Of a stretch of DNA of 56,090 bases, positions 4,095 to 47,864 are shown piece after piece (position 1 is the first letter of the stretch; each line of letters opens with the position of its first letter). The stretch lies in the IMG/VR virus record IMGVR_UViG_3300037191_001062, positions 1-56,090 of that record, one strand, 5' to 3'. The DNA is from a virus (Duplodnaviria; Caudoviricetes). The notes under the pieces are model-generated. The model was given only the letters and a program-made list of their open reading frames with translations, was not told the origin of the DNA and searched no databases. Position numbers and translations under genes: made by a program.

Positions 4095-4706
4095 ATGAAA
4101 AAAAATAAATTTGATAATAACTTCTTAGATTTACTGCAGCCAAGCAAATCTAAGGATTTCTTTACTTCCAGATCAACTGATGTTGTTCATGATTTTTACT
4201 TATCAGGACCAGTAGAAACTCCAGAATATTACGTCGAATGGTTTAATATAATTAGAAACTGCAGTGAAGCTGATACAGTACATATACATATTAACTCGTG
4301 TGGTGGTGATCTACTTGCTGCTATACAGATGATGCGAGTTTTGCGCGAGTGTCGGGCTACTGTAATTGCTTCAGTTGAAGGCGCTTGTATGTCAGCGGCA
4401 ACAATGATATTCTTGAGTGCTGATGTATTCGAATTATCTAGTCATACAATGTTTATGTTCCACAACTATGCTGGAAAAACCTCTGGTAAAGGTGGAGAAA
4501 TGTATAGTCAAATAATTCATGAACGCTGTTGGTCAGCTAAATTATTAAGAGATGTTTACTGCGGTTTTTTAACAAAAAGAGAAATCAAAGATATGCTTAA
4601 TAATAAAGATTTGTGGATGGATGGTAAAGAAGTTTTACTGCGCCTAGAGAAACGTTCGTGCAAATTAGAAAAACGCGAAGCTAAGAAAAAAGCCAAAGTT
4701 GATTAA
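4095..4706 (+). CDS. ClpP-like serine protease
   Basis: INSCGGD, ACMSAATMIF (Ser), FMFHN (His), KDLWM (Asp). Confidence 0.85.
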   Translation: MKKNKFDNNFLDLLQPSKSKDFFTSRSTDVVHDFYLSGPVETPEYYVEWFNIIRNCSEADTVHIHINSCGGDLLAAIQMMRVLRECRATVIASVEGACMSAATMIFLSADVFELSSHTMFMFHNYAGKTSGKGGEMYSQIIHERCWSAKLLRDVYCGFLTKREIKDMLNNKDLWMDGKEVLLRLEKRSCKLEKREAKKKAKVD

Positions 4707-4731
4707 ACAACAACAATAAAGAGAAATTATA

Positions 4732-4986
4732 ATGAAACCATTAAAGAATTTTGTACTAGTAACCGAAATAAAAACAAACGATAAGTTGACAGAAAGTGGC
4801 ATAATCTTAACACAGCGAGTTACAACAGGTGCATTACCAGGGTTAGTCTTGGAAGTTGGCTCATTGGTTGAGGATATTGAACAGGGTAATAAAGTTGCTC
4901 TTGATTGGGCTAAGGGATTACCTGTTACAGTAGAGGGTGTTAAGTGCATCTTAGTTAGCGATGAATTTATCCGAGCAATCTACTAA
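4732..4986 (+). CDS. groES: GroES-like co-chaperonin
   Basis: MKPLKNFVLV, TESGIIL mobile loop, VLEVG. Confidence 0.85.
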   Translation: MKPLKNFVLVTEIKTNDKLTESGIILTQRVTTGALPGLVLEVGSLVEDIEQGNKVALDWAKGLPVTVEGVKCILVSDEFIRAIY

Positions 4987-5594: not shown

Positions 5595-6170
5595 ATGACA
5601 CTAAACTTAAGAGAACTGACCAAAGAGAATCATAATAATATAGAAGGCTCAGATTTTGCTGAAATATTATTAGGCGGAAGAATAAATCCACTACTATATT
5701 ACCAGTATCTCTCGGCCCAGTATGAGATTTATGAAGCACTTGAGTCGTTAGTGACAATTCCGTCAAAACTTAAAACTGTTTTTCGAGCTTCTCATATAAT
5801 GCAAGATATGCATGGACTTGAAGATGAGTATGGACTTGAAGAAATAACCGAAAACCTCGAATCAGTTAGTTCATATATTAGTCATATAACCGAGCTTAGC
5901 GCAAAAGGAGAACATGATAAGCTATTAGCTCATCTGTACGTTCGGCATTTTGGTGATTTACATGGTGGTCAAATAATCAAAAAGAGAGTCCCTGGTTCTG
6001 GTACAATGTATGAGTTTACTGGTCGCAAACAGTTGATCACAGATCTTCGTAGTATGTTAAATAATGATATGGCCCCAGAAGCTATTGTCTGTTTTAAGTT
6101 TGCAGAGCTATTATTTTTAGAATTAGTTGATAATTTTGAAGGTGAAGATTTTGAAGTTGATGATCTATAA
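5595..6170 (+). CDS. hemO: heme oxygenase (HemO/Ho1-like)
   Basis: LRELTKENH proximal His; AHLYVRHFGDLHGGQII distal helix signature. Confidence 0.92.
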   Translation: MTLNLRELTKENHNNIEGSDFAEILLGGRINPLLYYQYLSAQYEIYEALESLVTIPSKLKTVFRASHIMQDMHGLEDEYGLEEITENLESVSSYISHITELSAKGEHDKLLAHLYVRHFGDLHGGQIIKKRVPGSGTMYEFTGRKQLITDLRSMLNNDMAPEAIVCFKFAELLFLELVDNFEGEDFEVDDL

Positions 6171-6847
6171 TGGATATCAATCCACTCTGGGATAAACTTG
6201 ATACATTTGCATCAAGTCTTAGCGAAACGTTTAATAATCATTTAAAACCGTTTATAAACGAAAAACATGATCAGCAATTCGATGGGTGGACTGATTCTTT
6301 CTGGTGTAGTGATAACATTAGAAAGTGTCATTTGAAAACGATTAACGATGGTAGAATGTGGTTGCTACATATCAATATATTTCCAAGAGAAAATGTTAAC
6401 TTACCTATTCTTGGTTTTGATATAGTTGCATCTAAAACTAAAATAAGTGGTTCGTTTTTTGACTTTTCTCCTGTTATAAAAGATCAAGTTCATCCATTAT
6501 GCGAACTGTTTAAAGCGTCTGTTAAGGATATTAAATGGAATAAACCAAGAGATTTACCTGAATGGGCTACTGAAATATTCTCAGACAACATGGTTGCTGC
6601 TGGTTCTATCACTTATGGTGATGAGTTAGAACAGTTGATTTGTTTATCTACTAACCTTATTAAGGCTTATTTGGCTTCTTGCAATGATATTAAAATGATT
6701 ACTACCTTACCAACTAAAACTCAACTTAACAAATATTGTGAAAATCAGAAGATGAATAAGCACCTGCATAGATCTATACTTGCTATGGGCATATCAGAAC
6801 AAGCTAAAGATAGATATATTAATAACGTTTTATTTGAAGAAATTTAA
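6170..6847 (+). CDS. ferredoxin-dependent bilin reductase, PcyX/PcyA-like
   Basis: W.SDNIRKCH, LLHINIFP, PILGFDIVA, GSFFDFSP, RDLPEWA.IFS, YCENQKMN motifs; stop/start coupled to heme oxygenase. Confidence 0.88.
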   Translation: MDINPLWDKLDTFASSLSETFNNHLKPFINEKHDQQFDGWTDSFWCSDNIRKCHLKTINDGRMWLLHINIFPRENVNLPILGFDIVASKTKISGSFFDFSPVIKDQVHPLCELFKASVKDIKWNKPRDLPEWATEIFSDNMVAAGSITYGDELEQLICLSTNLIKAYLASCNDIKMITTLPTKTQLNKYCENQKMNKHLHRSILAMGISEQAKDRYINNVLFEEI

Positions 6848-6931: not shown

Positions 6932-7168
6932 ATGACTGTAATCGCATTAACACCAGAAAAAATACATCATGAAATATCCCATATGATAGCAAGTGGAATT
7001 CCTTACATCGAAGCTCTTGTTGAATATTCGGAAAAGAACAACATCGAAATTGAAGTTGTTGCTAGTGTAGTTAAAAAATCTGCTGTGTTGCGCGAAAAAG
7101 TTAAAAGTGAAGCTATAAATCTTAGGATGGTATATGACGATGATATCGACATCACAGAATTTAATTAA
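6932..7168 (+). CDS. 33: late-transcription coactivator gp33
   Basis: YIEALVEYSEKNNIEIE...LREKVKSEAINL; T4 synteny 33-59-32. Confidence 0.85.
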   Translation: MTVIALTPEKIHHEISHMIASGIPYIEALVEYSEKNNIEIEVVASVVKKSAVLREKVKSEAINLRMVYDDDIDITEFN

Positions 7169-7742
7169 CCAAACTGCTTTCAATAGTTATGTGAAATATC
7201 TTGCGTATAAAAGACATTTCACTACAAAAAGCTACGACTTTCACAAATATAATGGCAAAGTCAAAGCAAACTTTGAAACTTTTAGAACTCGCAATGACGC
7301 ATACTTTTTTGCAAAACTTGCAAATAAACCTGATTATGAGAATATGATACTAGCTAACATGGTTGTTAATCCAGACGCTTGGATAAGAGATCTTATGGAT
7401 GATTCTGGTTATAATATATATGTTGAATGGAAAAAGAAGATAGATTCGTTAGGTCATGTTTTCAAATCAGATTTGAGTAATTTGAAAGATGACTATCAAT
7501 CTAACTTTATATCACACAATGGTCAACATCCACATATTGGTAAATTATTGCTTCAAAAGAAGATAACACTTGAAACATTTACGATGTTAGCTCATATGTC
7601 TAATATATATTCATATTGGAGTGAAAAAGTAGTTGACAAAATTATATTTTATGATATAATAATAAAATCCAAGAAGTATAAACCCTTCTTGCGATACGAT
7701 GAACAACGATTCAAACAAATCGTCAAAGATAAATTTTTTTAA
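7134..7742 (+). CDS. 59: helicase loader gp59
   Basis: YLAYKRHFTTKSYDFHKYNGK, KITLETF, KKYKPFL. Confidence 0.9.
   Translation: MTMISTSQNLINQTAFNSYVKYLAYKRHFTTKSYDFHKYNGKVKANFETFRTRNDAYFFAKLANKPDYENMILANMVVNPDAWIRDLMDDSGYNIYVEWKKKIDSLGHVFKSDLSNLKDDYQSNFISHNGQHPHIGKLLLQKKITLETFTMLAHMSNIYSYWSEKVVDKIIFYDIIIKSKKYKPFLRYDEQRFKQIVKDKFF
7633..7660 (+). promoter_or_regulatory. intragenic sigma70-type promoter for gene 32
   Basis: TTGACA-16-TATAAT with extended TG. Confidence 0.65.
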
Positions 7743-7864: not shown

Positions 7865-8785
7865 ATGTCATTTGCATCACTAAAAAAGAACCGTACAAAA
7901 TCCCTCGACAAGCTTAACTCTCAGCTTGAAAAAATCACTAAAAAGTCATATGCTGATCCAGATGCTGATAAGTATTGGAAACCAACTCGCGATAAAGTTG
8001 GTAACGGTTTTTCAATTATCCGTTTCTTACCTGCTGTTGAAGGTGAAGAACTACCATTTGTTCGCACGTTTGACCATGGATTCCAAGGACCAACTGGTTT
8101 ATGGTACATCGAAAGTTCTCTTACAACTTTAAACGTCGACGACCCAGTATCAGAATATAACTCTAAGCTGTGGAATTCTGGTATTGATTCTGACAAAGAA
8201 CTTGCTCGTAAACAGAAACGACGTCTTAAGTATATTTCAAACGTATTAGTTGTTAAAGATCCAGCTAACCCAGAAAATGAGGGCAAAGTATTTCTTTATC
8301 AGTATGGTAAAAAAATCTTTGATAAACTGAATGATTTGATGAACCCATCTTTTGAAGATGAATCACCAGTAAATCCTTTTGATTTTTGGGAAGGTGCTAA
8401 CTTCCGACTAAAAATTCGTTTAGTTGAAGGTTACCCTAATTATGATAAGTCTGAGTTTGACGATCCTACTTCTGTTTTCGACGATGATGATGAAATGGAA
8501 AAATTGTGGAAAACTCAACATTCACTTCAGTCATTGTTAGACCCTAATAAGTTTAAATCTTATGCTGAGTTAAAGACTAAATTGTTCCGTGTACTTGCAC
8601 TTGACGAAGCCGATAATAAAGACTTCGGTAAAACTGCAGAACAAGAACCTGTTGGCGGAAGCGATGAATTAGATTTAAGCGGTATTGCCGATTCAGCTCC
8701 AATTGAAGAATCTAAATCAGCTGGTGAAATGAACTCTGACGACGACGACGACTTGGCAATCTTCAAGGATCTAGCTCGCGGTTAA
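7865..8785 (+). CDS. 32: single-stranded DNA-binding protein gp32
   Basis: IRFLP, HGFQGP.G.WYIE, NPFDFWEGANF, NYDKSEF, acidic tail. Confidence 0.97.
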   Translation: MSFASLKKNRTKSLDKLNSQLEKITKKSYADPDADKYWKPTRDKVGNGFSIIRFLPAVEGEELPFVRTFDHGFQGPTGLWYIESSLTTLNVDDPVSEYNSKLWNSGIDSDKELARKQKRRLKYISNVLVVKDPANPENEGKVFLYQYGKKIFDKLNDLMNPSFEDESPVNPFDFWEGANFRLKIRLVEGYPNYDKSEFDDPTSVFDDDDEMEKLWKTQHSLQSLLDPNKFKSYAELKTKLFRVLALDEADNKDFGKTAEQEPVGGSDELDLSGIADSAPIEESKSAGEMNSDDDDDLAIFKDLARG

Positions 8786-8800
8786 TAATAGGAAACAGTA

Positions 8801-9079
8801 ATGAAAAACGTTGAAGAAATATTAGATTTTGGTTTTTATGCTGTTTCCGAAGATGAATTGGAAGTTGTTCAGATTGCAAATAAGCAATCTGAACAACTCA
8901 CTGCTCAACTAGAAACTGTCGACAATAAAGCAGAATTGCTCTATGCAGCAATAATGCCACTAATCAAAAATCTCAAAGCGAATCCAGAAAAAGATTATAT
9001 ATTCTGGCCTAATCGCACTGAAAAACTTGATGCCTTTGTAGAAAGGTTACAAAAAATACACAATGGAGATAATTTGTAA
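8801..9079 (+). CDS. conserved T4-like hypothetical protein
   Basis: DFGF.AV.E.EL, NPEKDYIFWPNR. Confidence 0.8.
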   Translation: MKNVEEILDFGFYAVSEDELEVVQIANKQSEQLTAQLETVDNKAELLYAAIMPLIKNLKANPEKDYIFWPNRTEKLDAFVERLQKIHNGDNL

Positions 9080-9985
9080 ATGAGTCTTTTAGATAAAATG
9101 TTAAAATCCGGTTCAATCAAACAAGCTGGTGTTGTAAATAAATCTGCTTTCTTTGACGAAAAAGAACCAATTCAGACTGAATTACCAATTGTGAATATCG
9201 CTTTTAGTGGTTCACTTAAAGGTGGTTTAATCCCAGGTCTAACTGTTGTCGCTGGTGCATCAAAAAGTTTCAAAACTCTACTATCACTGTATTGTATGAA
9301 AGCATATCTTGAAAAATATAAAGATGGTGTTGCTTTGTTGTATGATTCAGAATTTGGTATTACACCAGATTATTTAGAAAGTTTTGATATTGATACGTCA
9401 CGTGTACTACATATTCCAATCGAAGATGTTGAACAGCTTAAATTTGATATCGTTAAGCGATTAGACCAGATTGATAAGAAAGATCGTGTATTCATCATGA
9501 TCGATTCTATCGGTAACTTAGCTTCTAAGAAAGAAGTTGACGATGCTATGAAAGATAACTCAGCTGCTGATATGACTCGTGCTAAGCAACTTAAATCTTT
9601 ATTTCGCATCATAACTCCAAAGCTAACTACAAGAAACATTCCTTGTTTAGCTGTTAATCATATCTATCAAGAAATTGGTATGTTTCCTAAGAATATTGTA
9701 TCTGGTGGTTGCGTAGTTGAAGGCACAGAAATTCAAACACCAGATGGTCTTAAGAATGTTGAAGACTTCAATGTTGGCGAAAAAGTTATTACTCTAAACG
9801 GTGATAAAGTTGTAAGTCATGTTTGGAACCCTGATACACTTGAAGATGGCAATCCAGAATGTTATGAAGTTGAATTTGAAGATGGATTTAAAGCAACTGT
9901 TTCAGATAAACATAAATTCTTGGTTAACGAAGAATGGGTTGAAGCTAAAGATTTAGTTGTTGGAATGGATTGTACTGTTATTTAG
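9080..9985 (+). CDS. uvsX: UvsX recombinase N-extein (aa 1-210) fused to split-intein N-fragment (aa 211-301)
   Basis: Walker A GASKSFKT, YDSEFG, IDSIGNLASKKE; then CVVEGTEIQT (intein block A) and TVSDKHKF (block B). Confidence 0.95.
   Translation: MSLLDKMLKSGSIKQAGVVNKSAFFDEKEPIQTELPIVNIAFSGSLKGGLIPGLTVVAGASKSFKTLLSLYCMKAYLEKYKDGVALLYDSEFGITPDYLESFDIDTSRVLHIPIEDVEQLKFDIVKRLDQIDKKDRVFIMIDSIGNLASKKEVDDAMKDNSAADMTRAKQLKSLFRIITPKLTTRNIPCLAVNHIYQEIGMFPKNIVSGGCVVEGTEIQTPDGLKNVEDFNVGEKVITLNGDKVVSHVWNPDTLEDGNPECYEVEFEDGFKATVSDKHKFLVNEEWVEAKDLVVGMDCTVI
9710..9985 (+). mobile_element. split intein N-fragment (IntN, 91 aa)
   Basis: Cys1 directly after SGG, SxxH block B, WVEAKDL..G.D end typical of IntN. 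Confidence 0.9.
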
Positions 9986-10038
9986 TGATACAATTGCTCT
10001 AGCTAGAAAGCTATATCTTAATGAAATAAGGAAACAAA

Positions 10039-10155
10039 ATGAAAATAGTTAACGTTAAACAGGTTGGTAGAAAACCGGTTTATGATTTATCAATAGCAAC
10101 TGAAAATTATGATGAGCAACATTATGTACTCAAAAATGGTATAGTAACACACAAT
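10039..10155 (+). mobile_element. split intein C-fragment (IntC, 39 aa)
   Basis: block F VYDL, block G terminal His-Asn, +1 Thr. Confidence 0.92.
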
Positions 10156-10581
10156 ACTGGTATCTATTATTCAGCAAATCAAATCTTTATTATTAGTAAG
10201 TCTCAAGAAAAAGATGGTACTGATTTAGCAGGATTTAAATTTACAATCAATATCGAAAAATCTCGTTTTGTTCGTGAAAAAGCAAAACTACCATTCACTG
10301 TATTGTATGATTCTGGTATTCAAAAGTGGTCAGCATTGTTTGACTTAGCTATTGAATCTGGACATATAGCAAAAGGCGCCACTCAAGGCTGGTATAATGT
10401 TGTTGACCAAGAAACTGGTGAGCTTGTTGAACCTAAGCGTAGACAGAAAGACTTAGGTTCTGATGATAAATTCTTCGAAGCTCTTGTTAAAAACGAAACA
10501 TTTAACAACTTTATCGAACGTAAATATAAATTGACTATACCAGGAAAAATGAAAGATGATGGAAACAACGATACTATCTAA
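10039..10581 (+). CDS. uvsX: split-intein C-fragment (aa 1-39) fused to UvsX C-extein
   Basis: AAGGA RBS; MKIV..VYDLSI...HYVLKNGIVTHN|TGIYYSANQIFII, KSRFVREK. Confidence 0.95.
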   Translation: MKIVNVKQVGRKPVYDLSIATENYDEQHYVLKNGIVTHNTGIYYSANQIFIISKSQEKDGTDLAGFKFTINIEKSRFVREKAKLPFTVLYDSGIQKWSALFDLAIESGHIAKGATQGWYNVVDQETGELVEPKRRQKDLGSDDKFFEALVKNETFNNFIERKYKLTIPGKMKDDGNNDTI

Positions 10582-11986
10582 TTTAGTCTATAATAACGAA
10601 TACTACGCAAAAGTATATCCTTTTATTAAAGACGAATATTTTGATGATAACACACACCGTAAAATCTTTGATTCTTATCGCGATTATGTTGAACAATATA
10701 AGGCGCCTCCTTCATTGGAGGCTCTGCGAATCTCGATTGATAATCGTAAAGACTTAAACGAAACATCTTATTCTGAAATAATGAGTTCTATCAGTGAATT
10801 GAAAGTTGATAAAGATACAAATACTCAATTTCTATTCGATGAAACTGAAAAGTTTTGCCAGAATAAAGATCTTTATAACTCTATTCGTAAAGCAATTAAT
10901 ATCCTAGATGCTGATGATGAAGGCTCTAAAGATGGTACTGAAGAAGGTAAGGGTTCAATACCAAAACTTTTACAAGACTCACTAGGTATCAGTTTTGACT
11001 CGAGCGTTGGTCATGATTATCTAGAAGAATACGAAGGTCGATACGATTTCTATCATAAGAAAGAAGAACGAGTTCCCTTTGATATTGACTTGCTTAATAC
11101 AATTACCAAAGGTGGTCTACCTCGCAAGTCAATGACAGTATTACTAGCAACTACTGGTGGCGGTAAGTCGTTAATTAAATGTCATATGGCTGCAAACCAT
11201 CTGATGTACGGAAAGGACGTACTGTATATTACAATGGAAATGGCTGAAGAACGTATTGCTGAACGTATTGATGCAAACATGATGGATATCACAATTGACC
11301 AAGTTAAAGAAATTCCACGCGATGTCTATGAAAAACGCTTAAACAGATATAAAAGTAAGACTACTGGTAAATTAATTATCAAAGAATATCCTACTGGTTC
11401 TGCTCACGCCGGTCACTTCAGACATTTACTGAATGAATTGAAAATGAAAAAGAATTTTGCCCCAGATATTATCTTTGTTGATTACTTGAACATATGCTCA
11501 TCATCTCGTGTTCGTGGAGCAGCAGCAGCAAATTCATACACATTAGTCAAGTCAATCGCTGAAGAAATTCGCGGTCTTGCTATGGAATTTAATTGTGCCG
11601 TCGTTACATCTTCTCAGTTTAACAGAGATGGGTATGGAAATTCAGATGTCGATTTAACGAACACTTCTGAGTCTATGGGTATCACTCATACTGCAGATTG
11701 CATACTAGGTCTAATTACATCTGAAGCACTTGATGATTTAGGTCAACTTATGATCAAGCAACTAAAAAATCGTTGGGGCGACTTATCACATTATCGTAAA
11801 TTCTTGGTTGGAATAGACAAATCAAAAATGAAGATTTATAATCTTGAAGAAAGTGCACAACAGAATATCTCTACTGGCGATGCTAACCAACAGAAAGATA
11901 CTGGTCCTGCATTTGATAAAGGTGACTTTGGTTCTAGAATGGGTGGTAATAAACCGGGTCGTTTTAACTCGGGTGGTCTTGTATAA
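10556..11986 (+). CDS. 41: replicative DNA helicase gp41
   Basis: ATTGGGKS Walker A, YITMEMAEERIAERID, IKEYPT, VDYLNIC, QLKNRWGD. Confidence 0.97.
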   Translation: MMETTILSNLVYNNEYYAKVYPFIKDEYFDDNTHRKIFDSYRDYVEQYKAPPSLEALRISIDNRKDLNETSYSEIMSSISELKVDKDTNTQFLFDETEKFCQNKDLYNSIRKAINILDADDEGSKDGTEEGKGSIPKLLQDSLGISFDSSVGHDYLEEYEGRYDFYHKKEERVPFDIDLLNTITKGGLPRKSMTVLLATTGGGKSLIKCHMAANHLMYGKDVLYITMEMAEERIAERIDANMMDITIDQVKEIPRDVYEKRLNRYKSKTTGKLIIKEYPTGSAHAGHFRHLLNELKMKKNFAPDIIFVDYLNICSSSRVRGAAAANSYTLVKSIAEEIRGLAMEFNCAVVTSSQFNRDGYGNSDVDLTNTSESMGITHTADCILGLITSEALDDLGQLMIKQLKNRWGDLSHYRKFLVGIDKSKMKIYNLEESAQQNISTGDANQQKDTGPAFDKGDFGSRMGGNKPGRFNSGGLV

Positions 11987-13377: not shown

Positions 13378-14607
13378 GTGCATAGTTTTAAAAATTTTAT
13401 AATAGAATCTAAGAACATTCATATGAAACACGTAGAAGATTCAGTAATTGATGGTAGTGTTACTGGTGTAAGAACTGTAATTGATTATTTCAAAAGTCTT
13501 CGTAATATGCTTGCTGGTAGTACAAGTGATACTGTTAACTTAAGTGTTAAATGGGATGGATCGCCTGCTATTTTTGCTGGAATCGATCCTTCTGATGGAA
13601 AGTTCTTCGTTGCAAAGAAAGGCTTATTTAATAAAAACCCAAAAGTTTATAAAACACAACAAGATATTAATGATGATTTGAGCGGTGCACTTCGTGATAA
13701 ATTTACGATAGCGCTCAAAGAGCTTAGTAAACTTGGAATTAAAGGAGTTGTACAAGGTGATTTCCTCTATTCGAGCGATGATATTGAAGAAGATAATATT
13801 GATGGAGAACCGCATATTACTTTTCATCCTAATACCATTGTTTATGCGGTACCAAAGAAAAGCGATCTTGCTAAAAGAATCCTTAAATCAAAAATCGGTG
13901 TGGTCTGGCATACAATCTACAGAGGAGAATCTTTTGAGACACTGTCAGCAACTTTTGGAAAAGAGATTGCAATCGATCTTAAAGAAGTAGGTTCTGTTTG
14001 GTCAGTTGATGCTGTATTTAAAGATTCTTCGGGTTTAGTTACATTTACTAAACAGGAAACTGATGAAGTTACTATGATGTTATCAAATGCTGATAGAGTA
14101 TTTACGCGCGTTAAAAAAGCAGTCTTGGACGAACTTTCAAATAATACAGAACTCAATCTTCGAGTTAATACTTATATAAATAGTAAAATAAGAGCTGGTG
14201 AACGCATTATTGATCTTGCGGCTTTTATGATTGGACTTACTCAATTTATCGAAGAGTATTATCAGAAACTAGCAGACAAGCGTAAAACTCTAAAAGGAAA
14301 AACTGCTCAAATGGATAAAAAAAATTCTGTATTATCGTTCTTTAATAAATTTAAACAAAAAGATATTGAGAACGTATTCATCTTATATAATATACTAGTT
14401 GATATTAAATTAGTTATCATTGATAAGCTGAATAAAGTAGATGGCCTTAAAACTCTACTTAAAACAAACAAAGGTTACGAAGTTACTGGTCAAGAAGGTT
14501 TTGTTGCTATAGATCGTTACGGCAAGAATTCATTGAAACTAGTAGATAGATTACAATTTAGTAAAGCAAACTTTTCAAGTGATTATATTAAAGGGTGGCA
14601 AAAATGA
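13378..14607 (+). CDS. conserved T4-like protein, probable internal head protein
   Basis: GTG start; MHSFKNFIIE N-terminus; HMKHVED, VKWDGSPA, EGFVA, KLVDRLQFS. Confidence 0.8.
   Translation: MHSFKNFIIESKNIHMKHVEDSVIDGSVTGVRTVIDYFKSLRNMLAGSTSDTVNLSVKWDGSPAIFAGIDPSDGKFFVAKKGLFNKNPKVYKTQQDINDDLSGALRDKFTIALKELSKLGIKGVVQGDFLYSSDDIEEDNIDGEPHITFHPNTIVYAVPKKSDLAKRILKSKIGVVWHTIYRGESFETLSATFGKEIAIDLKEVGSVWSVDAVFKDSSGLVTFTKQETDEVTMMLSNADRVFTRVKKAVLDELSNNTELNLRVNTYINSKIRAGERIIDLAAFMIGLTQFIEEYYQKLADKRKTLKGKTAQMDKKNSVLSFFNKFKQKDIENVFILYNILVDIKLVIIDKLNKVDGLKTLLKTNKGYEVTGQEGFVAIDRYGKNSLKLVDRLQFSKANFSSDYIKGWQK
14175..14182 (+). promoter_or_regulatory. T4-type late promoter (intragenic)
   Basis: TATAAATA upstream of structural-like genes. 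Confidence 0.5.
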
Positions 14608-28327: not shown

Positions 28328-29449
28328 ATGTCTGTATTTAAGAAAAGGGCAGGATCGCACCTCTCATCGAATATTTTTTTCGGTGAGAGGGTAGACATCG
28401 CAAGGTATGACGAAGTAAAATATCCAGCGCTAGAAAAATTAACTAATACAATGCTTGGATTTTTTTGGAGACCTGAAGAAGTTAATATCACAAAAGACAA
28501 GTCTGATTTTGTTAATCTTTCTGATAAAGAAAAACATATATTTACTGCAAATTTAAAAAGACAAATATTATTAGATAGTGTACAAGGTAGAGGTCCAACA
28601 GAAACTTTTATACCTATTGCGTCGTTGCCCGAAATAGAACCACTAGTTCAGACTTGGGCATTTATGGAAACTATTCACTCAAGATCTTATACTCATATTA
28701 TAAGAAACATTTATCCTAATCCAAGTGAAGTGTTCGACACGATGTTGGATATTAGCGAGATATTAGATTGTGGCGATAGTATATCAAAATATTACGATGA
28801 TTTTATTGAAGCAAGTAAATGGTGGCAGTTACTAGGTGAAGGTACTCATATCATTAATGGTAAAGAATTTGTAATTGATTTATACGAATTAAAAAAGAAA
28901 TTGTGGTATGCAATCAATTCAATCAACATATTAGAAGGCGTTCGTTTCTATGTTTCGTTTGCTTGTTCTTGGGCATTTGCTGAAAATAAATTAATGGAAG
29001 GCAACGCAAAGATTATTAAACTAATTGCCAGAGATGAGAATACACATTTAGCAGCATCACAGATGATTATAAAAAATCTTGTAAAAGAAGATCCAGATTT
29101 TGCTAAAATATCTGTAGAATGTCACGACTATATTCAATCAATGTTTATACGAGCTGCTGATCAAGAACGAAATTGGGCTTCATACTTATTCAAAGATGGT
29201 TCGATGTTGGGTTTGAGTGAAAACATTTTGGTGCAATATATTGAATGGATTGTAACGAGACGTATGAGATCTTTAGGTTACACGTCTCCTTATCATGTTC
29301 AACAAACAAATCCGTTACCATGGACTGAAAAATATATTGGTGGTGGTAATGTACAAGTAGCACCACAACAGACACAAATATCTAGTTATGTTATCGGTGG
29401 CGTTAATCAAGATATGACAGCAGAAAAGTTACAGGGATTATCTTTATAA
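28328..29449 (+). CDS. nrdB: ribonucleotide reductase class Ia beta subunit
   Basis: FFWRPEE, LLDSVQGR, ETIHSRSY, LEGVRFY, RDENTH. Confidence 0.98.
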   Translation: MSVFKKRAGSHLSSNIFFGERVDIARYDEVKYPALEKLTNTMLGFFWRPEEVNITKDKSDFVNLSDKEKHIFTANLKRQILLDSVQGRGPTETFIPIASLPEIEPLVQTWAFMETIHSRSYTHIIRNIYPNPSEVFDTMLDISEILDCGDSISKYYDDFIEASKWWQLLGEGTHIINGKEFVIDLYELKKKLWYAINSINILEGVRFYVSFACSWAFAENKLMEGNAKIIKLIARDENTHLAASQMIIKNLVKEDPDFAKISVECHDYIQSMFIRAADQERNWASYLFKDGSMLGLSENILVQYIEWIVTRRMRSLGYTSPYHVQQTNPLPWTEKYIGGGNVQVAPQQTQISSYVIGGVNQDMTAEKLQGLSL

Positions 29450-30081
29450 TGTACCGAGTTGGTGACTTTAATGATTACATCGATTTTGCAAAAGCAATTG
29501 GATGCAAAAGAATTGAAGAAATATTAATACAACCAGAAGATGGCGCTGAAGTTTTTCAGTGCCATCACAACGCAAGTTCTAATCCAGTACTGGGTTACTA
29601 TTTTGCTACTGATTCTCACGGTATTAAACATGCGTTTAAACATAGTGTATTGGGGCAAGGTGATATATTAGTTGATGTTACTCCAACTCTAGACAATAGA
29701 AAATATAATATATTTGCTTATGGCTGTATTGACATTGGCGAACACATTACATATTTAAATAACGAAGTCTTTATAAATAAAAATAAACAAGAGACTGAAA
29801 TTATTTACTATGTATATGCATTAATTGATCCAATAACTAAAGAACCTTTCTATATTGGAAAGGGTGAAGATGACAGGGCTCTTTCTCATTTTAAAGAAAC
29901 AGCTTTAGAAAAAGAAGGCAATAATAGAAAGACAGCTAAAATTAAAAAACTAAAATCGTTAGGATATGAACCAATGATTGAATTTTACGCACAAAACATT
30001 ATTGATGAAGATCTTGCATATTATATACAAGAAAAAATTGTAGAAAAACACAAATTGCAATTAGAATCCGGTGTGTATTGA
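29449..30081 (+). CDS. unknown N-terminal domain fused to an apparently truncated GIY-YIG endonuclease
   Basis: YVYALIDP...PFYIGKG...RA.SH; ends shortly after the catalytic helix. Confidence 0.75.
   Translation: MYRVGDFNDYIDFAKAIGCKRIEEILIQPEDGAEVFQCHHNASSNPVLGYYFATDSHGIKHAFKHSVLGQGDILVDVTPTLDNRKYNIFAYGCIDIGEHITYLNNEVFINKNKQETEIIYYVYALIDPITKEPFYIGKGEDDRALSHFKETALEKEGNNRKTAKIKKLKSLGYEPMIEFYAQNIIDEDLAYYIQEKIVEKHKLQLESGVY
29772..29779 (+). promoter_or_regulatory. T4-type late promoter just before the GIY-YIG domain
   Basis: TATAAATA inside ORF 29449-30081. Confidence 0.6.
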
Positions 30082-46724: not shown

Positions 46725-47864
46725 ATGGATTTAAGAATAGCTGAAATCTTAATAAAAGAGTGTAATCGACAAGACAAAACTCTTGAATTAATCGCCAGTG
46801 AAAATTTTGCAAGTGAATCTGTAATGACGCTGTGCGGCAGCGAGTTTACAAATAAGTATGCCGAAGGTTACCCAGGAAAACGCTATTACAACGGCTGTGA
46901 TTATGCTGATTCTATTGAGCAATTAGCAATTGATACTGTTACTAAATTGTTTAAATGTAATTATGCAAACGTCCAACCGCATAGTGGTGCAAATGCAAAC
47001 CTTGCAGTATTTAAAGCCTTTCTAAAACCAGGAGATAGAATCTTGGGTATGGACTTAGCCAGCGGTGGACATTTGAGTCATGGTGCTGGGGTTAACATAT
47101 CTGGTGCTTGGTTTAATGCCGAGTCTTACGGTGTCGATAAAAATGGTCTATTAGATTATGGAGAAGTATTAGAGAAAGCTGAATTATATAGACCTAAAAT
47201 AATTATTGCAGGTGGCTCTGCGTATCCAAGACAAATTGATTGGAAAAAGTTTAGAGAAATCGCAGATTCAGTTGGTGCAATCTTATTAGTCGATATGGCA
47301 CATTATGCAGGTTTGATTGCAGGTGGAGCATATGATAGCCCATTACGGTATGCCGACGTAGTAACGAGCACAACACACAAAACACTTCGAGGTCCAAGAG
47401 GTGGTATTATACTATGGAATAATAAAGATTATTCGCGCAAGATTAACAGTGCGATATTCCCTGGTACCCAAGGTGGACCATTGATGCACATCATAGCTGC
47501 GAAGGCTCAATGTTTTGTTGAAGCAAGTGAAGATTCGTTCGGAGAGTATACAAAGTCTGTAGTTGAAAACGCAAAAACAATGTGTCAAGTATTTAACGAA
47601 CACGGATATAATGTTCAGACAAACGGCACCGACAGTCATATAATTTTACTTAATCTTTCCGGTCACAAACACAGTGGTCGCGAAGCAGCAGATTTATTAG
47701 AAAAAAATGGAATTACAGTGAATAAAAATGGTGTACCAAACGACGATAGATCCTTTGCTGAGACAAGTGGAATAAGAATTGGAACTGCTGCAGAAACAAC
47801 ACGTGGCCACAACACAGAATCGTTCAAAAAAATTGCGAAACAAATCGTAAAGATTCTAAGCTAA
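46725..47864 (+). CDS. glyA: serine hydroxymethyltransferase
   Basis: LIASEN, NKYAEGYPGKRYY, QPHSG, GGHLSHG, DMAH, TTHKTLRGPRGG (PLP Lys), SGIRIGT. Confidence 0.97.
   Translation: MDLRIAEILIKECNRQDKTLELIASENFASESVMTLCGSEFTNKYAEGYPGKRYYNGCDYADSIEQLAIDTVTKLFKCNYANVQPHSGANANLAVFKAFLKPGDRILGMDLASGGHLSHGAGVNISGAWFNAESYGVDKNGLLDYGEVLEKAELYRPKIIIAGGSAYPRQIDWKKFREIADSVGAILLVDMAHYAGLIAGGAYDSPLRYADVVTSTTHKTLRGPRGGIILWNNKDYSRKINSAIFPGTQGGPLMHIIAAKAQCFVEASEDSFGEYTKSVVENAKTMCQVFNEHGYNVQTNGTDSHIILLNLSGHKHSGREAADLLEKNGITVNKNGVPNDDRSFAETSGIRIGTAAETTRGHNTESFKKIAKQIVKILS

Follow-up and report, generated by a model that had tools for sequence, protein, structure and literature searches.

A fractured uvsX gene with a canonical, probably functional split intein and no endonuclease gene in an uncultured marine T4-like phage

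The window analyzed here is the complete IMG/VR viral contig IMGVR_UViG_3300037191_001062 (56,090 bases, G+C content 33%, CheckV completeness 31%), which comes from an uncultured marine T4-like phage. Its recombinase gene uvsX is distributed over two open reading frames (ORFs), and the locus raises the question of whether these encode parts of one protein that are rejoined by a split intein, and how such an arrangement came about. It is very likely that uvsX is a fractured gene in which a canonical class-1 split intein would trans-splice the two products into a UvsX of 351 amino acids (aa), and that an endonuclease gene has been lost from the spacer between the halves. This arrangement is known in kind and common in public phage data; the particular trait of the window is the absence of the endonuclease gene. 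The locus comprises the following parts:

9080..9709, + strand: uvsX N-extein, residues 1-210, RecA-type ATPase core up to ...SGG (Pfam RecA, 8.9e-10)
9710..9985, + strand: N-terminal intein fragment (IntN), 91 aa, from Cys1 to ...DCTVI, with the stop codon TAG at 9983-9985
9957..10052, + strand: 31-aa ORF in the third frame
9986..10038, no strand: spacer of 53 nucleotides (nt) with the Shine-Dalgarno sequence AAGGA at 10028-10032
10039..10155, + strand: C-terminal intein fragment (IntC), 39 aa, from Met1 to His38-Asn39
10156..10581, + strand: uvsX C-extein, 141 aa from Thr+1, followed by a stop codon (Pfam T4_UVSX_C, 5.5e-5, below the curated cut-off of 27 bits)

The upstream ORF (9080..9985, 301 aa; N-ORF) encodes UvsX up to ...KNIVSGG (residue 210) and then 91 aa starting with Cys. 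The downstream ORF (10039..10581, 180 aa; C-ORF) encodes 39 aa ending with His-Asn, followed by Thr-Gly-Ile-Tyr-Tyr and the rest of UvsX, and the joined exteins comprise 210 + 141 = 351 aa. The AAGGA ribosome site lies six bases before the ATG at 10039. IntN is strongly acidic (21 D/E versus 7 K, net charge -14), and the first 12 residues of IntC carry four K/R (+4). No endonuclease gene is present between the halves, where the longest ORF across the spacer is the 31-aa one. This anatomy, the charge counts and the lack of a homing endonuclease had been put forward in a first-pass annotation made from the sequence alone; coordinates and translations agree with it, and a recount gave the same charges.

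The position of the intein in the host protein is defined by comparison with T4 UvsX. Residues 29-210 of the N-ORF align to positions 5-186 of chain 3io5_A (E 4.1e-61) and the C-ORF aligns from Thr40 onwards to the same chain from position 187 (E 1.4e-26). Since positions 186 and 187 are consecutive across the halves, the exteins abut exactly; both are homologous to T4 UvsX and become contiguous once the intein is removed, which is what the first-pass annotation had claimed. By homology to RecA, this insertion point lies at the end of the DNA-binding loop L2. In the five closest intein-free loci of IMG/VR (L013-L017, with N-exteins 77-79% identical to that of the window), the matches to the N- and C-exteins likewise lie on adjacent bases, for example 3630/3631 in L013. 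Of the sequencing runs listed as sharing window sequence, ten are DNA runs with small shares (best 0.27) and none is an RNA run; contigs of four of the ten (X1-X4) were aligned to the window. In runs X3 and X4, from seawater of another study, contigs connect position 9708 to position 10156 with one letter between, and represent an empty-site allele without exactly 9710-10155. The boundaries of the intein are exact.

A trivial origin of the split, namely an assembly or sequencing artefact in a contiguous mini-intein, is extremely improbable. Such contiguous relatives do occupy the same site (P0044, the P0075/P0124 cluster, with P0124 on 43 contigs, L011 and L062), and no X1-X4 contig spans 9955-10139, so that the spacer is neither confirmed nor contradicted there. 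Against an artefact, the spacer contains five stops in the IntN frame, the IntC frame is +2 relative to that of IntN, and an in-frame stop is located 12 nt upstream of the IntC ATG. With five spacer stops and IntC in another frame, a single base error could not fuse the ORFs. The spacer, AAGGA included, is homologous to the end of the spacer of a related locus (L008), the identical 301-aa N-ORF is present on three contigs, and short or overlapping spacers recur at four other distinct loci. In addition, 324 protein clusters carry an IntN of the window type, and nearly all of the 120 clusters listed are about 300 aa long.

The intein fragments contain the residues of a class-1 intein. Cys1 (C211), the position-1 nucleophile, is invariant in 91 of 91 aligned N-fragments, as are S275 and H278 of block B, where Ser275-Asp-Lys-His278 fits the pattern (T/S)xxH; 15 further IntN positions are also invariant, and the length of IntN is 91-94 aa in 88 of the 91. 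In all 40 aligned C-fragments the penultimate His (H38), the terminal Asn (N39) and Thr+1 (T40) are conserved. These C-fragments all start at the same position, and M1, V14, Y15, D16, N33, G34 and T37 are invariant too, the conserved stretches being VYD of block F and NGxVTHN. One locus outside this alignment, L056, has Ser at +1. The form of the split is canonical (S0), with two ORFs and a break at the endonuclease-insertion position. According to the accessible part of PMC13014065, canonical split inteins have an IntN of roughly 100-130 aa and an IntC of 35-50 aa; the IntN of the window (91 aa) is slightly shorter than this range and its IntC (39 aa) falls inside it.

The invariance of these residues bears on the idea that the intein halves serve as a non-covalent dimerization tag for the UvsX fragments, splicing having been lost or being no longer needed; the NrdA of phage Aeh1, split without an intein, is the parallel. 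Known examples of essential genes that are split and function as two peptides come from T4-like phages (Friedrich et al. 2007, as cited in the accessible part of PMC10448857). However, Cys1, the block-B His, the terminal Asn and Thr+1, which are needed for the chemistry only, are kept in every N- and C-fragment aligned, and an unspliced domain of 130 aa would interrupt the T4 UvsX chain between positions 186 and 187. A purely non-covalent role is therefore quite improbable.

Purifying selection acts on both intein halves. The closest relative of the window, L008/L009, is 90% identical to it in the N-extein, 90% in IntC and 85% in the C-extein, and comparison with L008 gives dN/dS (the ratio of nonsynonymous to synonymous divergence) well below 1: about 0.22 for IntN (dN 0.34, dS 1.53), about 0.04 for IntC (dN 0.05, dS 1.21) and about 0.07 in both exteins (N-extein: dN 0.06, dS 0.80), although the dS values are high, near saturation, and the ratios consequently rough. 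These values disagree with the view of uvsX as a decaying pseudogene in which the intein halves are dead relics left after endonuclease loss and the phage uses other recombination functions. The endonuclease gene is indeed gone, and uvsX has been described as a "quasicore" gene that some T4-like phages may lose (PMC4177764, accessible part). Both ORFs are intact, though, with all catalytic residues kept; the ribosome site is retained and matches that of L008, and the N-ORF recurs without change on its three contigs. Decay of the gene is very improbable, and the intein of the window is real, canonical and probably functional.

The nearest solved relative of the window intein is gp41-1 (6qaz), and sequence comparison places the window intein in the gp41-1 lineage. 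The window IntN itself matches gp41-1 with a phmmer E of 6e-4. For the contiguous relative L011:3631-4020 the match to gp41-1 is full-length (E 1.3e-11), and the point where the halves of L011 meet coincides with the natural split point of gp41-1. This bears out the conventional split proposed in the first-pass annotation. The two inteins share the split position and a block B of the SxxH type, in which S-E-E-H of gp41-1 is aligned to Ser-Asp-Lys-His of the window. Differences are the low identity, only about 28%, and the host protein, which is the gp41 helicase rather than UvsX.

The fold was examined on L011, whose IntN is 77% identical to that of the window, and not on the window intein. 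The AlphaFold2 model of L011 has a predicted local distance difference test score (pLDDT) of 68.5 and a predicted template modelling score of 0.49. Its last 15 residues are poor, probably because the input alignment lacked the IntC-only rows, which MAFFT had misplaced (identities 9-21%). Searching with this model gave 48 Foldseek matches at E <= 0.001; among the matches listed, all are inteins or HINT domains, and the first is gp41-1, with 28% identity. The association of the two fragments was assessed by a complex prediction for N-ORF residues 205-301 and C-ORF residues 1-46, each with an alignment. It gave a score of 0.58 against 0.00 for the best of three controls, at least 92% of contacts agreeing between runs and the partner pLDDT being at least 71. 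The mark is reached by 116 of 157 solved complexes and by 2 of 215 mismatched pairs. Scores of 0.60 or less belong to only 18 of the 157 solved complexes and to both mismatches that passed. As split-intein complexes have already been solved, the pass may reflect likeness rather than binding of the window copy.

A second intein with which the locus had been compared is VidaL. The first-pass annotation mentioned a "VidaL UvsX-2" as a reported split intein hosted by UvsX. VidaL (6vgv) matches L011 in the C-terminal half only (phmmer E 0.013) and ranks 30th among the Foldseek matches, with 17% identity. The comparison is right in that VidaL is also a HINT-fold, cysteine-dependent, naturally split, metagenomic intein. 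It fails in that VidaL is atypically split, with an IntN of 16 aa (PMC13014065, accessible part), and is a weak relative of the window family.

At this UvsX site the intein is widespread, and the novelty implied in the first-pass annotation, which itself asked for a check of host and site, does not hold. A word-seeded search with the IntN region revealed the 324 protein clusters at E <= 0.001, and nearly all of the 120 listed represent N-fragments ending at the same split point. In a tblastn search of IntN against 50,697 phage records, 50 records matched. Half of these (25 GenBank records, from 19 cultured phages) carry the intein in uvsX, with an IntN 48-62% identical to that of the window, and the other 25 have inteins in portal, ribonucleotide reductase, helicase or unannotated genes. 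The hosts of the 19 cultured phages are Escherichia, Salmonella, Shigella, Klebsiella, Enterobacter, Proteus, Yersinia, Pseudomonas, Shewanella and Vibrio, and the phages include Escherichia HY03, Proteus PM2 and Pm5461, Yersinia TG1, Pseudomonas PspYZU05, Shewanella Thanatos-1, and Vibrio vB_VmeM-32 and EniLVp02. These T4-like phages share with the window the insertion site (GG|T) and the split point. In all six examined of the 19, two coding sequences flank an annotated or evident endonuclease gene, with spacers of 501-1066 nt, whereas the window lacks this gene. Among cultured phages, identity to the UvsX N-extein of the window does not exceed 59%.

The records of the cultured phages name the halves "DNA repair protein" and "recombinase," and only that of vB_VmeM-32 notes a HintC domain. 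In annotation, the two ORFs should be designated the N- and C-terminal portions of UvsX, each with an intein half, and not two separate repair proteins. No description of a split intein in UvsX was found in the literature searched, which did not cover the original VidaL papers or the supplements of Dassa et al. 2009. The intein thus belongs to a large, already sequenced family that is apparently undescribed in the searchable literature.

Local tblastn classed 122 loci as 80 without an intein, 34 split, four contiguous, three partial and one with IntC only. Afterwards six duplicate rows were removed and each locus was checked by eye, L074 being reclassed as split with overlapping ORFs and L080 as a split intein at a different site. 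This left 29 distinct split loci at the window site, the window counted, and two distinct contiguous ones (L011 and L062). Twenty of the 29 have a spacer of at least 653 nt with an ORF of 129-485 aa, and four a spacer of 286-501 nt with ORFs of 85-161 aa. The spacer is shorter than 150 nt, or the ORFs overlap, in the remaining five: the window (53 nt), L060 (75 nt), L066 (107 nt), L056 (142 nt) and L074 (overlap). L060 may be degenerate, as its IntC starts with TTG and has no evident ribosome site. A free-standing endonuclease gene between the halves is seen in 20 of the 29 distinct split loci and not in the window. The ORFs in the spacers are of several kinds: HNH with NUMOD3 (L018), GIY-YIG (Thanatos-1), NUMOD3 only (L010, L020 and HY03) and weak I-HmuI/I-TevI matches (L008).

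Comparison with L008/L009 indicates how the endonuclease gene could have been lost. The L008/L009 spacer is 895 nt long and contains ORFs of 229 and 54 aa, the former with weak matches to I-HmuI/I-TevI DNA-binding domains. By blastn, window positions 9083-9973 correspond to L008 3001-3891 and positions 9981-10581 to L008 4741-5341, and the 53-nt spacer has its counterpart in the final ~55 nt of the L008 spacer, ribosome site included. This alignment to the 3' end of the L008 spacer implies a deletion of ~849 nt. The simplest reading of the two sequences is that it removed the endonuclease cassette from an L008-type spacer, deletion being the presumed direction of the change. The 31-aa ORF of the window, which ends ...IALARKLYLNEIRKQNENS, resembles at its end the C-terminus of the 54-aa ORF downstream of the L008 endonuclease gene (4648-4812), which ends ...IALAKKLYVNDIRKQNENS, and is probably a truncated relic of such an ORF.

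Small ORFs of 54-61 aa are located between the endonuclease gene and IntC in L008 (4648-4812), L004 (4179-4364) and L005 (3933-4100). The one in L008, for which no Pfam family was found, overlaps the IntC start, and the window (9957-10052) retains only its last ~20 codons.

The similarity between the window and L008 is uneven. IntN (window 9710-9982 versus L008:3628-3900) is only 56% identical, as compared with 85-90% for the N-extein, IntC and C-extein. In a quick IntN tree with about 100 split forms (91 columns, support by the SH-like approximate likelihood ratio test, many unresolved forks), the IntN of L008 is on a long branch. The pattern suggests a joint exchange of IntN and the endonuclease gene. 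As a corollary of the more doubtful life cycle proposed below, halves of different alleles might also be exchanged and still work together.

Several observations weigh against a functional trans-splicing intein. The search with Hint-domain models proposed in the first-pass annotation gave matches, all below the curated cut-offs: on the N-ORF, Hint_2 scores 23.9 bits (E 6e-5; cut-off 28.4), Intein_splicing 17.9 (cut-off 35.8) and PT-HINT 16.2 (cut-off 27.7). Sub-threshold scores are to be expected where, as here, each ORF holds only half a domain; many homologues carry precomputed PF13403, PF14890 or PF07591. The structural model is that of the relative L011 and of moderate confidence only, and the complex prediction reached only the grade of "weak support." To these points are added the near-saturated dS values and the lack of an X1-X4 contig across the spacer. 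Finally, the 56% identity of IntN to L008, set against 90% for IntC, means that the halves may differ in history, their compatibility being assumed.

Trans-splicing nevertheless remains the preferred reading, and the following course of events is proposed. The two uvsX ORFs most likely share a transcript but are translated separately. The acidic IntN (91 aa) and the IntC (39 aa) with its basic N terminus would then assemble into a gp41-1-type HINT domain. Class-1 trans-splicing could proceed via Cys1, the block-B Ser and His, the terminal His-Asn and the Thr+1 nucleophile, and would join Gly210 to Thr+1, yielding the 351-aa UvsX. The element was presumably derived from the widespread UvsX split-intein family, whose halves are normally separated by a free-standing homing endonuclease gene. 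In the window lineage ~849 nt with this gene would have been deleted, leaving a stop codon, 53 nt, a ribosome site and a start codon.

Splicing could in addition be conditional, depending on redox state via Cys1 or on fragment stoichiometry, and act as a post-translational switch of recombination, as the first-pass annotation had suggested; this would supplement trans-splicing and not replace it. Conditional splicing has been reported for RadA and DnaB inteins (PMC4513877 and PMC6195587, accessible parts), and IntN contains a second invariant Cys (C261). Nothing specific to regulation is visible in the sequence, however, and intein-free and contiguous alleles coexist in close relatives, as expected of a selfish element and not of a needed regulator, which makes a switch unlikely.

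Beyond trans-splicing in the window, the coexisting alleles suggest a life cycle of the intein at this UvsX site (site b), leading from an empty site to a split intein with endonuclease, then to loss of the endonuclease gene, as in the window, and to re-fusion into a contiguous mini-intein. This scheme is tentative and rather doubtful. In the IntN tree, the contiguous forms appear at three separate places among the split forms, the starred branches being by themselves compatible with a single origin of the contiguous forms. P0044 lies within a clade of split forms (support 97), two of three contiguous forms retain a Met exactly at the IntC start, and short-spacer alleles arise several times. 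The linker DNA of L011 contains no clear relic of a ribosome site that would bear on re-fusion. If the scheme is true, contiguous mini-inteins arise from split ones, and not only the reverse.

A second insertion site in UvsX is located 12 residues upstream (NHxYx|C...(S)HN|TQE). P0005 has a contiguous intein there, as L074 (1694-1957) apparently does, in addition to the split intein that both have at site b. In L080 the intein at the upstream site is split, and its 816-nt spacer contains a 266-aa ORF.

Fractured genes of marine T4-like phages interrupted by split inteins, including gp41-7 as the one locus listed without an endonuclease gene, were described by Dassa et al. 2009 (PMC2677866), in the accessible part of which UvsX appears only as an intact neighbouring gene. 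As in those cases, the window has a T4-like replication or recombination gene divided between two same-strand ORFs with a canonical split intein, and, as in gp41-7, the endonuclease gene is lacking. Going by the same part of that paper, the window differs in its host protein, which is UvsX and not gp41, NrdA, NrdJ, IMPDH or DNA polymerase, and in having Thr at +1. The relatives of the window intein also differ in their endonucleases, which are of the HNH+NUMOD3, GIY-YIG and NUMOD3-only kinds, those of the Dassa loci belonging to the Vsr-like family.

The locus adds a natural canonical split intein of the gp41-1 lineage with Thr+1, a candidate ligation tool beside hundreds of alleles of the family. 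Its main interest is as one stage of a natural fractured-gene series in one gene, which comprises intein-free, contiguous, split with at least four kinds of endonuclease, and split endonuclease-free forms. Members of the series occur in easily grown coliphages such as HY03, so that gain, loss and possible re-fusion of fractured genes are open to experiment.

The + strand around the split uvsX encodes T4-type replication and recombination genes:

7134-7739, + strand: gp59
7865-8785, + strand: gp32
8801-9079, + strand: 92-aa ORF without family, directly before the uvsX ORFs
10556-11986, + strand: gp41-type DnaB helicase, after the uvsX C-ORF

No terminator-like site was found in 8700-10700, including between the two uvsX ORFs, and a promoter scan gave seven sites versus 9.2 expected, none of which stands out. 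The helicase ORF overlaps the end of the uvsX C-ORF by 26 nt (10556-10581), and the window lacks T4 gene 40, which separates uvsX from 41 in the cultured relatives examined. Just upstream of gp59 are genes for heme oxygenase (5595-6167) and ferredoxin-dependent bilin reductase (6170-6844), pigment genes of the type found in marine cyanophages. Directly after nrdB, a 210-aa ORF (29449-30078) matches a GIY-YIG domain (LEM-3_GIY-YIG, E 1.5e-7) and may encode a free-standing homing endonuclease elsewhere in the same phage. An ORF at 30633-31073 matches the anti-CBASS protein Acb1 in full length (Pfam PF23474, E 4.9e-38), and the contig further contains genes for a DUF6267 protein (13378-14604, E 9.8e-100) and serine hydroxymethyltransferase (46725-47861, E 2.3e-148).

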